From a virus, in IMG/VR virus record IMGVR_UViG_3300027518_000004: 64,000 bases of DNA. One strand, given 5' to 3'. Under the pieces are notes generated by a model. It was not told the origin of the DNA. It searched no databases and saw only the letters and a list, made by a program, of their open reading frames with translations. The translations under genes were made by a program, and so were the position numbers. How positions within the stretch are numbered: the first letter of the stretch is position 1; every line of letters starts with the position of its first letter. This document shows positions 39,686 to 45,069 of the stretch, in pieces.

Positions 39686-39715
39686 TTGACAAAAAGACCA
39701 AGAGGGTGCTAAAAT
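39686..39715 (+). promoter_or_regulatory. Sigma70-like promoter for the polymerase operon
   Basis: TTGACA-18 nt-TAAAAT with TGn. Confidence 0.75.
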
Positions 39716-39744: not shown

Positions 39745-39996
39745 ATGGAAATAAAAATTATACTATTCCCAAATAATCTTACTCTTATTGCACAAATTCA
39801 AGAGATTGTCCCGGAAGATATTGGGCAACCAGATTGTAAAATTATAGAACCATTTATTATCAATGGCGATTTTCTATCGGCCTGGTTGATTGATGTGTCT
39901 TCTCAAAACGCTTTTATGATGCATTCTGACAAATTTCTTACAATTGCTGAACCTAATATTAATCTTCTTGCAAAATATAAAGAATTAATTAAATAA
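39745..39996 (+). CDS. Conserved small protein preceding gp43 (Sm-like fold predicted)
   Basis: IGQPDCKIIEPF...MMHSDKFLTI motif; synteny. Confidence 0.75.
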   Translation: MEIKIILFPNNLTLIAQIQEIVPEDIGQPDCKIIEPFIINGDFLSAWLIDVSSQNAFMMHSDKFLTIAEPNINLLAKYKELIK

Positions 39997-41282
39997 TGTT
40001 TTACACTTCAGTTAAACAAATCGGAAACGCAATTTATGAAAGGGGGTATGATGACTCTGGTGTTCCATTTCAAGTCAGAGTAGATTATAACCCAACTTTT
40101 TATATTACTTCAAGCAGACCATCAGAGTGGAAAACTTTAGATAATAAAAATGTTTCTCCTATAAAACCAGGATCAATCAAAGAGTGTAAAGAATGGTTAA
40201 CACAATATAAAGATGTTGATAATATTTCGATTTATGGGCACGAAACAGCAATTTACCAATACCTTGCTGAACAATATCCAGAAGAAATTGAAGATTTTAA
40301 CATTAATAAAATCAGGCTGTATACCTTAGATATTGAGACAGCAGCGGAATTAGGTGGGTTTCCTGAACCAGACATTGCCCAAGAAGAAATTCTCCTGATT
40401 ACTATTCAGGATTATTCAACCAAAAAAATCTATACCTGGGGAAGTAGACCTTTTTCTGAGGTAATGGATAATTATGTTTATCAAGAATGCGCCAATGAGG
40501 TCGATCTTCTTAATAAGTTTTTGACCTTCTGGGAGGCCAATTATCCTGATGTTGTGACATCTTGGAATGGAAATTCGTTTGATATCCCATACATAATCAA
40601 CCGAATTAAAAGAGTTCTTGGAACTGCCGACGCAAAAAGGCTTTCTCCTTGGAAATTCATCCGTGATCGTCAGATCCAAAAGAACAATAAAGTAGAAACC
40701 CAATATGAAATTTATGGGGTAAGTCTTCTTGACTACATGGAGCTTTATAAAAAGTATTCATTCAAAAACCCAGAAAACTATCGACTAGATACGATTGCCT
40801 ATAATGAACTAGGCCAGAATAAACTAGATCACTCTCAGTATGAGACGTTTAAGGACTTTTATACTTATGGATGGGATACCTACGTCAAATATAACAAGAT
40901 TGACGTAGAACTTGTTGATCGCCTAGAAGAAAAACTCCAACTAATTAACATGGCGATTGATCTTGCCTATCAATCAAAGTCTAATTATGAGGACGTTTTT
41001 TATCAGGTGCGAATGTGGGACAACATTATTTTTAATTACCTTAATAAAAAGAAGATTGTTATTCCACTTAAAAAAGAATCAAACAAGTCAGAAAAGTTTG
41101 CGGGTGCCTACGTAAAAGAGCCAATTCCTGGTCTTTATGGATGGACAGTGACTCTTGACCTTACGTCACTCTACCCGCATATTATGATGCAGCACACAAT
41201 CTCACCAGATTCGCTTATAGAGAATTCTCAAATAAACTCTAGAATTTTAGAGTTAGAAAAGGAGTTGAAGACTAGGAGCTAA
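39996..41282 (+). CDS. gp43A: DNA polymerase gp43, N-terminal piece (3'-5' exonuclease plus motif A)
   Basis: LDIET, SWNGNSFDIPY, YNKIDV, TLDLTSLYP motifs; ends ISPDSLIENSQINSRILELEKELKTRS-stop. Confidence 0.95.
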   Translation: MFYTSVKQIGNAIYERGYDDSGVPFQVRVDYNPTFYITSSRPSEWKTLDNKNVSPIKPGSIKECKEWLTQYKDVDNISIYGHETAIYQYLAEQYPEEIEDFNINKIRLYTLDIETAAELGGFPEPDIAQEEILLITIQDYSTKKIYTWGSRPFSEVMDNYVYQECANEVDLLNKFLTFWEANYPDVVTSWNGNSFDIPYIINRIKRVLGTADAKRLSPWKFIRDRQIQKNNKVETQYEIYGVSLLDYMELYKKYSFKNPENYRLDTIAYNELGQNKLDHSQYETFKDFYTYGWDTYVKYNKIDVELVDRLEEKLQLINMAIDLAYQSKSNYEDVFYQVRMWDNIIFNYLNKKKIVIPLKKESNKSEKFAGAYVKEPIPGLYGWTVTLDLTSLYPHIMMQHTISPDSLIENSQINSRILELEKELKTRS

Positions 41283-41285
41283 ATA
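41279..41285 (+). promoter_or_regulatory. Late promoter CTAAATA for the HNH gene inside gp43
   Basis: Includes the gp43A stop codon. Confidence 0.6.
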
Positions 41286-41308
41286 ACTTTTTATTTACAA
41301 GTACGTCG

Positions 41309-41872
41309 ATGCCGAAAGAAATTTATATTTCAAGAGAAGAATTATATGATGTTTACATTGGGCAGAATATGACTAGAGCCCAATGCGCCACCTATTTTGG
41401 CTGCTCCGATCCATGTATAAAAATAAAAATACGAAAGTATGGTTTACAAAAACCGAAAAAATTAGAAATTGAGAATAAAAAAAGAAAAAGGGGAATAGTT
41501 TATTGTAAGACTTGTGGTAAGCCATTTGAAGTAGAGCCTTTTCGGGCTCGCAATAGTAAATATATACCAAAAAATTGCTCGCGTGAGTGTGCTACATTAT
41601 CACTGACTCTCGGGGAGGAGCATAAAGCATTGACTAGAGCCGTTTTGGCGGCTAAAAGGCGGGCAAGAATGAAAGAAGCCTATGATCCCACCGCTGACAA
41701 AGAAGCAATAAGAGAAATTTATGCCACTGCAAGAAGAATGACTAAAGAAACTGGAATTCAATATCACGTTGATCATATTATACCAATATGTAAGGGTGGT
41801 AAGCATCATCAAGACAATCTTCAGATACTCACTAGAACTGAAAATTTTAAAAAAGGTTCAAAAATTTTATGA
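41309..41872 (+). mobile_element. HNH homing endonuclease gene inserted between the gp43 pieces
   Basis: N-terminal HTH-like region, CKTC...CSREC zinc motif, YHVDHIIPICKGGKHHQDNLQILTRTEN. Confidence 0.9.
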
Positions 41873-43227
41873 CAGATATGTGGAAAAATGTTAATGTGAT
41901 GTCTACTTTTGAAATTGAAGAGGAATTGAATGCATTAAAAAAAATTCAAAAAATAACAACTGAAATAACTATTGATAAAGTATTGTCCCGCAATACTGAT
42001 ACAGATTGTTTAAAAAAATATCCAATAACAATTACTCCAAATGGAGTCTTATACAACAAGAGTAAAATGGGATTTTTACCCGAACTCCTTGAAATTATGT
42101 TTGAAAAAAGAAAATTTTATAAGGATAAAATGAAAGAGCTTGAACGAGAGTATGAAGAGACTCATGATGGCGATGTTAAAACAAAAATTTCAACTTATAG
42201 TATAAAGGAAAAATCCATTAAAGTTTGTTTAAATTCTTGTTATGGTGCGACTGGAAATCCTTATTTTAGATTTTATGATTTGAGAAATGCCGAGGCTGTG
42301 ACGTATACTGGTCAGTTAGCAATTCGTTGGATTGAACGAAAATTTAATGAATATTTTAATAAAATTTTAAAAACAAATGATATAAATTATGTAATTTATT
42401 GCGATACTGATTCCGCTTTTTTGAACTTAACTCCACTTATAGAAAAAATTTATAGTAATAAAATGCCACCCACATCAGACATCGTGAATTTTTTAGACAA
42501 GATTTTTTCTACTGAGATTCAGATGTATGTAAATGATTCCTATGAGGAGTTGGCCAATTATCTTCATGCTTATAAAAATAAGCTCCATATGAAGAGAGAA
42601 AAAATTGCCGACAAGTTTCTTATTACGGGCAAAAAGCACTACATCATTAACGTATGGGATAATGAAGGAGTAAGATATTCTGAACCAAAGATTTCTGTTA
42701 CTGGAATTGAGGCGGTTAAATCATCTACTCCTGCTTTTTGTAGAGATAAACTTAATGTGGCTTTTGAAGTATTAATGAACTATACTGAAGAAGACATGAT
42801 TAAATTTGTTGAAGAAACAAAAAAAGAATTTTTTAAACTTGCCCCAGAAGATGCAGCATTTCCAAAAGGAGTATCAGATGTAACTAAATTTTTGGCCACG
42901 ACTGCCCTATATAAAAAGGGAACACCTATCCATGTACGAGGTTCCATTCTATACAATAATAACCTTAAAAAGCATGGCTTGGAGAACAAATACAATTTTA
43001 TAACCAATGGCGAAAAGATAAAATATTGCTATTTAAACATGCCTAATCCAATCATGGAAAATGTGATTGGGTTCATACAGACTTTACCAAAAGAATTCGG
43101 TCTACATGCTTACGTAGATTATGAGACCCAGTTCGATAAAACTTTCGTGCAACCTTTAAAAGCAATATTAGATATCATTGGTTGGAAAACAGAACAAACA
43201 ATTACACTCGATCAATTTTTCATATAA
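41869..43227 (+). CDS. gp43B: DNA polymerase gp43, C-terminal piece (fingers, palm motifs B and C, thumb)
   Basis: GFLPELL, KVCLNSCYGATG (motif B), YCDTDS (motif C), C-terminal PCNA/gp45-binding TLDQFF. Confidence 0.95.
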   Translation: MTDMWKNVNVMSTFEIEEELNALKKIQKITTEITIDKVLSRNTDTDCLKKYPITITPNGVLYNKSKMGFLPELLEIMFEKRKFYKDKMKELEREYEETHDGDVKTKISTYSIKEKSIKVCLNSCYGATGNPYFRFYDLRNAEAVTYTGQLAIRWIERKFNEYFNKILKTNDINYVIYCDTDSAFLNLTPLIEKIYSNKMPPTSDIVNFLDKIFSTEIQMYVNDSYEELANYLHAYKNKLHMKREKIADKFLITGKKHYIINVWDNEGVRYSEPKISVTGIEAVKSSTPAFCRDKLNVAFEVLMNYTEEDMIKFVEETKKEFFKLAPEDAAFPKGVSDVTKFLATTALYKKGTPIHVRGSILYNNNLKKHGLENKYNFITNGEKIKYCYLNMPNPIMENVIGFIQTLPKEFGLHAYVDYETQFDKTFVQPLKAILDIIGWKTEQTITLDQFFI

Positions 43228-44445: not shown

Positions 44446-45069
44446 ATGTGTAAATCAGACGAACGCGCTCATAAGCATCATATTATCCCAAAATATATGG
44501 GTGGAAGTGATGAACCTGAAAATCTTGTTGAGGTCACTGTAACTCAACACGCCATGTTTCACTTCTGTAATTATCAATTATGGGGTAATTGGGAAGACAG
44601 ACTAGCCTGGAGAGGTCTATCTGGGCAAATAACTCCAGATGAAATTGCCTTAGAAGCAATGGTTTTAGGTAGTAGAAAAGGTGGAAACAAAATTAAAGAA
44701 AACAAAATAGGAATTTTTAGCCTTTCATCACAAGAACTAAGCGAGGCAGGTAAAAAAGGTGGAAAAATATCCGGAGGCGGAAAAATAGCATCTTCTCAAA
44801 AATGGAAATGCACCGAAACAGGATATGTTTCAACTGCAGGAGGACTTACTTTTTATCAAAAGAAAAGAGCAATTGATACGTCTAATAGAATAAAAATCGA
44901 TGGACCTAGAAGTTGGCAAATTACTTTTGAAAATGGTATAGTTGTTGCTACTACTAAAACTCTAAAAGACTGGGCCAAGGAAAATGAATATAGTTATGAT
45001 TGTCTTCGTAAGGTAAGAGAAGGTGAAATTAAAAACCATAAAGGAATTATAAAAATAATTTGTTTATAA
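44446..45069 (+). mobile_element. Free-standing HNH homing endonuclease gene
   Basis: HKHHIIPKYMGGSDEPENLVEVTVTQHAMFH; GKKGGK low-complexity linker; C-terminal DNA-binding-type module. Confidence 0.85.

Follow-up and report, generated by a model that had tools for sequence, protein, structure and literature searches.

How can a homing endonuclease gene (HEG) persist inside the gene for a replicative DNA polymerase? Introns and inteins are considered the main refuge that lets HEGs survive in essential genes, and the few cases of genes in pieces have passed for fortunate accidents at domain boundaries. The question is raised by gene 43 of the IMG/VR virus record IMGVR_UViG_3300027518_000004, analysed here as one stretch of 64,000 nucleotides (hereafter, the window). 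In this phage, gene 43 is interrupted just past motif A by a free-standing HEG of the HNH type, and its two parts, gp43A and gp43B, are separate cistrons. An extra peptide, the tail, ends gp43A, and another, the head, begins gp43B; we refer to both as tags. The break is inside the palm fold of the polymerase, and the conserved peptide pair is inherited alongside the nuclease gene. We propose that the locus is probably a T4-like cyanophage polymerase fractured by an HEG, in which the HEG and its selected tags form a mobile unit and the tags help the predicted halves to associate. The functional importance of the tags, the split itself and the absence of an intron are well supported.

A polymerase gene in two cistrons

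The gene gp43A (39996–41282, on the plus strand, as are all the coding features described below) encodes 428 aa that comprise the N-terminal domain, the 3'-5' exonuclease and the first part of the palm, up to and including motif A (DLTSLYPH), followed by the tail. After an intercistronic spacer of 26 nt (41283–41308), in which we found a weak, AT-only inverted repeat with a fold energy of -2.3 kcal/mol, comes the free-standing HNH HEG (41309–41872, 187 aa). The second half, gp43B (41869–43227, 452 aa), carries the head, the remaining palm, the fingers, motif C, the thumb and a clamp-binding-like C-terminal end, and its ATG (41869–41871) overlaps the TGA of the HEG (41870–41872) in the sequence ATGA. 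An earlier, sequence-only reading of this DNA had described gp43 in two pieces around a 187-aa HNH gene; the list of open reading frames (ORFs) and the sequence confirmed its coordinates for the three ORFs exactly, each in a different frame, and the gap and the overlap are as it claimed. The three genes would be co-transcribed, with the two polymerase halves translated separately.

Among isolates, Synechococcus phage B3 has the closest polymerase, an intact gp43 of 830 aa. Residues 1–408 of gp43A are 69% identical to B3 residues 1–406, and residues 32–452 of gp43B are 60% identical to B3 residues 412–830, with five B3 residues replaced by 20 at the end of gp43A and 31 at the start of gp43B. 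The same reading had estimated additions of about 19 and 30 aa, and the comparison with B3 upholds both. The tail (41220–41279, gp43A residues 409–428; ENSQINSRILELEKELKTRS) is homologous to the ...LNxRIxELExxL end of relatives, while the head (41869–41961, gp43B residues 1–31) reads MTDMWKNVNVMSTFEIEEELNALKKIQKITT. Since most relatives begin gp43B at MWK, which in the window is the second in-frame ATG (41878), the head could be only 28 aa long instead of 31.

With Pfam, DNA_pol_B_exo1 and the first 90 positions of DNA_pol_B were found in gp43A and the remaining DNA_pol_B in gp43B. The catalytic motifs are all kept across the two cistrons, motif A in gp43A and the motifs KxxLNSxYG (fingers) and YCDTDS (motif C) in gp43B. 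The break corresponds to about residue 431 of RB69 gp43 (about B3 residue 407), twenty residues past the motif A aspartate, D411. By the published RB69 domain limits, it falls inside the first palm segment and not at a domain boundary.

Conservation of the tags in split relatives

A length-limited protein search showed how widespread the split form is: the tail ended 45 of the best 120 gp43A-length matches, and the head began 108 of the best 120 gp43B-length matches. The A-forms of the relatives have 415–428 aa and end in ...SPETLVxxxxLNxRIAELExML; their B-forms have 448–452 aa and begin with MWKDVRKMSREEIxEELEALKxVRELS. On contigs of up to 255 kb the order was gp43A, nuclease gene, gp43B, in a cyanomyovirus context, and the arrangement seems to be present in environmental phage sequences by the thousand. 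The same layout recurs in a third T4-like lineage, a more distant one (L017, L018 and L047), with the tail ERKRKLLDELKLRNTK, a 177-aa HNH gene 45–47% identical to that of the window and the head MFRDVKEMTTEEIEKELQAIELFQ. Wherever the contig reached, the tail, the HEG or a remnant of it, and the head were all present (38 loci with a tail or a head, 27 of them with both ends, in three polymerase lineages).

Could the tags be neutral by-products of the insertion, the tail arising by read-through of the upstream frame into inserted DNA and the head from an ORF call extended upstream of gp43B? This is the usual outcome at intron and HEG insertions, and the window by itself would be compatible with it. 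When 13 locus pairs from the three lineages were summed, however, the ratio of nonsynonymous to synonymous change (pN/pS) was 0.37 in the tail, next to native codons at 0.24, and 0.36 in the head, next to native codons at 0.29, with synonymous sites near saturation. For the enzyme, purifying selection in the two halves indicates no more than their being in use. In 24 gp43B relatives, which share only 40–45% identity with the window over their first 140 residues, the head residues M4, W5, K6, M11, E15, I16, E19, L20 and L23 are invariant, as are one Arg and one Leu among the tails of relatives. Invariant residues are kept across three lineages, and the MWK start in 108 of the 120 best B-forms. 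Because of the ratios and the invariant residues, the 20-aa tail and the 31-aa head are translated, constrained peptides and not intron ends or accidental read-through; they are real, selected and matter to the protein. An origin as mere by-products is accordingly quite improbable.

Two nuclease types in the same gap

The HNH catalytic motif of the window HEG (41762–41848, residues 152–180; HVDHIIP...GGKHHQDNLQILTRTEN) matched Pfam PF01844 with an E value of 9.8e-6 and 26.1 bits, the cut-off being 21.4, and reads HVDH...N...N, with the conserved His and Asn present. The protein also matched the PHROG HNH and endonuclease VII families, and homologues 45–70% identical to it occupy the same site in L008, L009, L015, L018 and others; among solved structures the HNH protein had no sequence match. 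Its N-terminus holds a predicted helix-turn-helix module (41327–41467, residues 7–53), with weak matches to HTH, Sigma70_r4 and HTH_28.

In many relatives, the middle gene encodes instead a 175-aa protein with a weak N-terminal match to GIY-YIG and a C-terminal helix-turn-helix. Residues 7–53 of the window HEG are 36–38% identical to the latter (E 3e-9 and 1e-8), and both kinds of HEG matched phrog_8446. By these matches, two unrelated nuclease types, HNH and GIY-YIG, alternate in the gap and share a helix-turn-helix module. The 175-aa GIY-YIG ORF had no tblastn match in isolated phages, so this form is known here only from metagenomes.

The head peptide led to 22 metagenome loci, of which 14 had the HNH gene, seven the GIY-YIG gene and one an HNH remnant. 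In the last (L106), only the final 160 nt of the HNH gene are left and the catalytic HxDH is mutated (HEVYH), yet the polymerase is still split, tagged and ATGA-overlapped. From a point 28 nt upstream of gp43B onwards, a GIY-YIG locus (L119) and an HNH locus (L120) share 99.9% identity over 2.7 kb; further upstream they are unrelated. Both nuclease genes end in the same ~20 bases (AAAATTATGGAGAATTGA) in L003, L100 and L103, and this common 3' end includes a GGAG nine bases before the gp43B start. The swaps, the remnant and the common 3' end indicate that the nuclease gene can be exchanged or decay, as a selfish element would, while the region in which translation of gp43B is initiated persists. 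Given the stop-start overlap and the same ~20-nt end in both types of HEG, translation of gp43B probably requires the upstream ORF's 3' end. It had been suggested that this coupling makes the nuclease gene hard to lose, which holds at most for the 3' end of the HEG: overlap or adjacency of stop and start is the rule in relatives, and L106 kept its last 160 nt and the ATGA, whereas the HEG is swapped between HNH and GIY-YIG in near-identical backgrounds (L119 versus L120) and is absent from polymerases that carry the two tags fused in one chain.

Other features of the gap vary among relatives. In marine relatives, the spacer between gp43A and an HEG of either type folds into a conserved hairpin of -8 to -14 kcal/mol (for example, L015 2893–2936, L103 1886–1933 and L002 3426–3472), with a T4-late-promoter-like sequence, TATAAATA, in the loop (HNH type) or just before the hairpin (GIY-YIG type). 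These spacers recall the control of T4 HEGs by a late promoter plus a hairpin. Extra cargo between the HEG and gp43B includes a Dam-family DNA adenine methyltransferase (L113 173–607; Pfam E 1e-29) and small ORFs of 54–100 aa, some with CxxC pairs (L111 2332–2496, L112 2314–2496, L017 3206–3508 and L018 2645–2842).

Absence of an intron and of an intein

One way to obtain a full-length polymerase from this locus would be a group I or group II intron with an HNH ORF, spliced out to give a single mRNA and a single chain. HNH-bearing group I introns are known in phage DNA polymerase genes, as in Pf-WMP3 (PMC3428280), and the break adjoins motif A. Against this, Rfam detected no intron family in 40900–42300, even at a permissive threshold (E<=10), the matches there being at chance level (a snoRNA, E 0.39; RT-2, E 3.6; DLEU2_4, E 6), and the region is AT-rich with weak folding. 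The supposed intron ends (41220–41308 and 41873–41961) are conserved as amino acids and not as structure. Moreover, L106 has lost most of its HEG and still has the stop, the start and both tags, and the GIY-YIG and HNH genes swap with no common flanking RNA core. The claim of the sequence-only reading that there is no intron stands, both on the Rfam result and on the purifying selection on the tags as protein, with residues invariant across relatives of about 45% identity; we consider splicing of the RNA very improbable.

Ligation at the protein level is less probable still. Both cyanophage-like genes and Aeromonas phage gp43 provide examples of a split intein whose halves flank a free-standing HEG (PMC2677866; PMC11923092), and the tags might be regarded as the two parts of a very small one that ligates the halves by protein trans-splicing. 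They amount, however, to 51 residues in total, far below the 130–150 aa of an intein fold (PMC11923092), and both are predicted to be helical, whereas inteins are beta-rich. Pfam found no Hint domain, and the conserved intein junction residues are lacking, with no conserved Cys or Ser at the start of the tail and no Asn followed by Cys, Ser or Thr at the end of the head. A split intein is hardly conceivable on these grounds. As the added pieces are 51 aa of predicted helix with no intein motifs, the halves could only associate and not be ligated.

Signs of exchange of the interrupted region between phages

The nearest relative of the window, G001, has 44% of the window's 31-mers in common, and its gp43 is unsplit at the palm site, tagless and HEG-less (GPETLINQSFPSISVDK). 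Codon-aligned nucleotide identity between the two is 90–100% over most of gp43, drops to 40–60% from about codon 395 of gp43A to about residue 222 of gp43B, and then returns to 98–100%. Within the divergent region, 41896–42495 is 98–100% identical to another contig, L011, whose flanks are 80–90% identical to the window. The recombination tract so delimited (41189–42540, 1.3 kb), which has the insert at its centre, resembles a co-conversion tract and covers the tail, the HEG, the head and about 215 codons of gp43B. As it is shared with L011 and divergent from G001, the tail, the nuclease gene and the head have been inherited as one block. Such a pattern is what homing with co-conversion of the flanks, or any recombination that exchanges the block, would leave, and mobility of the nuclease gene is supported, at this level, by the presence/absence polymorphism, the apparently co-converted flanks and the HEG swap between L119 and L120. 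The unit of tail, HEG and head would move, or be exchanged, by HEG-stimulated recombination between co-infecting phages, tags included.

Two further observations concern these tracts. The window HEG (41309–41872) is 91–97% identical to L011 2696–3256, compared with 98–100% identity for the head beside it and for the first 200 codons of gp43B, which suggests that the nuclease gene is evolving faster than the polymerase tract it travels with. In addition, the gp43 of G001 (in L013, G001:C1:42000-54000, reverse strand) carries a 343-aa LAGLIDADG-type intein in its exonuclease domain (GWN|C...VHN|CNAFDIPY) that the window lacks, at a site equivalent to about codon 192 of gp43A (~40566–40572). Identity between the two falls to 81–86% over codons 166–210, around that site, suggesting a second co-conversion tract in the same gene.

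In a gene tree of the region downstream of the head, the split alleles grouped with unsplit alleles of their own lineage, and no fewer than four changes on well-supported branches were needed to account for the split state. Given that the split alleles form no single clade in this region, a transfer of the whole tract over long range was considered and rejected. It follows from this grouping that what the lineages have in common can be no more than the tags, the HEG and a short flank; the cassette is either ancient, with repeated losses, or has passed from lineage to lineage with little besides the tags. A bolder reading is that tail, HEG and head make up a mobile, self-contained cassette equipped with a two-helix protein "zipper" of its own, which has spread to three or more aquatic T4-like lineages and occupies a niche contested by two nuclease families that reuse one DNA-binding module. 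We advance it tentatively, its chances being somewhat short of even.

Possible association of the polymerase halves

What would the tags do in a divided enzyme? An indirect indication comes from natural polymerases that are unsplit at the palm site and carry tail and head in one chain, joined by a turn of 3–5 residues: P0025 and P0081, both with the insert LNNRIVELES-NGKND-EELDALKQVRELS, and the isolate S-CAM7, whose fused version is more degenerate and has lost the invariant Arg of the tail segment. For the metagenome variant P0025, AlphaFold2 predicted a helix at 409–422, a three-residue turn and a helix at 426–441, with a predicted local distance difference test (pLDDT) of 82–88; for gp43B of the window it predicted a head helix at 13–32 (pLDDT 76–79). 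Because the joining turn is so short, the two helices of the fused form must run antiparallel side by side, and the simplest reading, a plausible one, is that the split forms make the same two-helix hairpin from two chains. After translation, the tail helix and the head helix would then pack antiparallel, as in the fused hairpin, and this packing would add to the native palm interface, holding the halves together as an active polymerase.

The sequence-only reading had gone further and taken the tags for a heterodimerising coiled coil, pointing to hydrophobic residues spaced by 3–4 in both. The predicted helices and the natural fused forms agree with the pairing part of that proposal; a canonical heptad is weak. 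The spacing is literally present in the tags, and in the tail, four of five hydrophobics fall in one a/d register (p ~0.07 against shuffles), which is marginal; for the tails of relatives p was mostly 0.002–0.05, with 0.60 for that of the third clade. In the head the spacing is at chance. A complex prediction with tail residues 399–428 and head residues 1–45 alone (27-row alignments) scored 0.25, the mark being 0.32, and is neutral on binding.

A different account accepts the split and the mobile HEG as real and denies that the tags are a zipper: they would be a pre-existing helical surface insertion with another role or none, the HEG would have landed in its loop, and the native palm interface would assemble the halves. 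Unsplit polymerases such as that of S-CAM7 hold the same insert contiguously, the site is a loop of variable length in T4-like polymerases, with other helix-like inserts (e.g., EPEDYTQEMRDVISQG), and the head has no significant heptad pattern. It is harder to reconcile with the split heads, which are longer than the fused ones by an N-terminal segment, MWKD..M..EI, that is invariant in them and missing from the fused forms, suggesting adaptation to the split state. The fused tail segment of S-CAM7 is degenerate and without the invariant Arg, both tags occurred in every split locus inspected, and tagless alleles were never split at the palm site. We regard this account as unlikely, though far more credible than an intron, an intein or neutral by-products.

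Several points nevertheless weigh against our proposal of mobile, paired tags. Only three of six hydrophobics of the head fall in register (p ~0.85 against shuffles), and the hydrophobic moment of the tags (Eisenberg scale) is not above that of shuffles; a classical coiled coil is doubtful, the heptad being marginal in the tail and absent in the head. The case for pairing in trans, which is plausible, is drawn from homology to the fused forms and from conservation. The native palm interface might suffice for assembly, as the split lies inside the palm fold, and there is a report that the split gp43 of phage 44RR, whose break is elsewhere, assembles (Petrov et al. 2010, cited in PMC2988022). 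The hairpin may have predated the split, being present in undivided polymerases before the HEG inserted into its loop; the L124 junction of the fused form was searched for HEG-derived bases and gave an ambiguous alignment. As for mobility, the divergence of the HEG roughly tracks that of the polymerase, for which reason long vertical co-inheritance with repeated loss fits as well as horizontal spread, and the region upstream of the window HEG is without the late-promoter-like hairpin of the marine relatives.

Genomic neighborhood

The neighboring genes encode RegA, Hsp20, DUF6561 and UvsX, and the best DNA matches of the window are Kyanoviridae, which together identify the window as a T4-like cyanomyovirus. 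A sigma-70-like promoter candidate (39686–39715, plus strand; TTGACA-18-TAAAAT, 11 of 12 matches, with TG), based on consensus match only, lies upstream of the DUF6561 gene and gp43A, and no terminator-like site was found on the plus strand between it and uvsX. Downstream of uvsX, the window has a second free-standing HNH-like ORF (44446–45069, plus strand, 207 aa), which matched the Pfam HNH family with 21.5 bits, barely over the cut-off, and a PHROG "homing endonuclease" family. G001 has sequence related to this ORF elsewhere, as well as an HEG of 264 aa bearing NUMOD3 between gp43 and uvsX.

Implications

If the tentative cassette reading is true, it would represent a third way, beside self-splicing introns and inteins, for an HEG to sit harmlessly inside an essential gene. 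If the peptides hold the halves together, this would explain how such insertions are tolerated and would provide a natural, evolution-tested split site and zipper for engineered split polymerases. It would also offer a tractable cyanophage system for measuring homing and co-conversion, in which some close relatives have the cassette and others lack it, and one site is contested by two nuclease families. A practical consequence concerns annotation and phylogeny. Gene callers will report two "DNA polymerases" at such loci, and gp43 is a standard phylogenetic marker for cyanomyoviruses, whose trees will be distorted by the mosaic tracts at the palm site and at the intein site of the exonuclease domain.

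Comparison with known systems

In the open literature, searched with incomplete coverage, we came across no account of a cyanophage gp43 broken after motif A, which is weak evidence of novelty. Fractured genes with a free-standing nuclease gene are themselves established: nrdA with mobE in phage Aeh1, gene 43 in Aeromonas phages 25 and 44RR, and cyanophage-like split-intein loci (PMC2988022; PMC2677866; PMC11923092). In the Aeromonas salmonicida phages 44RR and 25, according to the passages of PMC2988022 and PMC2677866 that cite Petrov, Ratnayaka and Karam (2010), 43A and 43B are separated by intercistronic untranslated sequence, and the gap of phage 25 holds a free-standing GIY-YIG HEG of the seg type. 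The likeness to the window is clear, as in both a T4-family PolB gp43 is encoded by two cistrons with a gap whose free-standing HEG is optional among relatives. The Aeromonas halves are believed to assemble non-covalently; the same is proposed for those of the window.

The sequence-only reading had offered these Aeromonas polymerases as a precedent, which does not extend to the site. When the sequences were compared, the break in 44RR and phage 25 was at the tip of the fingers, about B3 residue 480 (gp43A of 498 aa and gp43B of 391 aa), whereas in the window it lies in the palm past motif A (about B3 residue 407, RB69 residue 431). The window's nuclease is of the HNH type, and its GIY-YIG alternative differs from the seg-like HEG found at the fingers-tip site of L124. 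The insert of the window is, furthermore, co-inherited with a conserved pair of tail and head, unlike that of the Aeromonas split.

The fingers-tip site is also split in cyanophage-like gp43 (L122 3501–6070, L124 699–3577 and L114 943–1269). The A' forms there have 487–516 aa and end in ...LEQIEEEMKSRGLL, tails that resemble that of Aeromonas phage 44RR (...ILASRGVKLDH). L122 is split with no HEG and with an ATGA overlap, its B' beginning with MMDLKNLSDKELLELQKK; the gap of L124 holds a seg-like GIY-YIG gene; and the polymerase of L114 is apparently in three pieces, split at both the palm and the fingers-tip sites.

The nrdA gene of Aeh1, split by mobE, gives a ribonucleotide reductase encoded as "genes-in-pieces" (Friedrich et al. 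2007, as cited in PMC2988022). As in the window, a free-standing HEG of the HNH family lies inside an essential gene, and two polypeptides result with neither RNA nor protein splicing. The nrdA pieces reassemble into an active enzyme, as the gp43 halves would. The host gene is another one and the case is that of a single phage, while the type of the window forms a large family in three lineages, with turnover of its HEG. To our knowledge, no conserved complementary extension peptides have been described for nrdA/mobE.

Phages SPO1 and SP82 carry an HNH-bearing group I intron (I-HmuI) in the DNA polymerase gene. Homing of the SPO1/SP82 group I intron by a nicking endonuclease is the subject of reference 90 of PMC2988022, an entry in which the polymerase gene is unnamed, and I-PfoP3I of Pf-WMP3 belongs to a group I intron with an HNH ORF, again in a phage DNA polymerase gene (PMC3428280). 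In these introns, as in the window, an HNH nuclease gene interrupts the polymerase gene at a conserved catalytic region. Unlike them, the window has no detectable intron RNA, its flanks are coding, and the interruption would be resolved at the level of the protein.

A further parallel is with fractured genes in which a split intein has a free-standing HEG between its halves (Dassa et al. 2009, PMC2677866) and with the split intein Aes123 PolB1, found in T4-like phages of Aeromonas (PMC11923092). As in the window, an N-terminal half with an added C-terminal piece is followed by an HEG and by a C-terminal half with an added N-terminal piece; the arrangement is found in cyanophage-like replication genes, with a hairpin upstream of the HEG in relatives. 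The difference lies in the added pieces, which in the window total 51 aa, are predicted to be helical and carry no intein motif of any kind.

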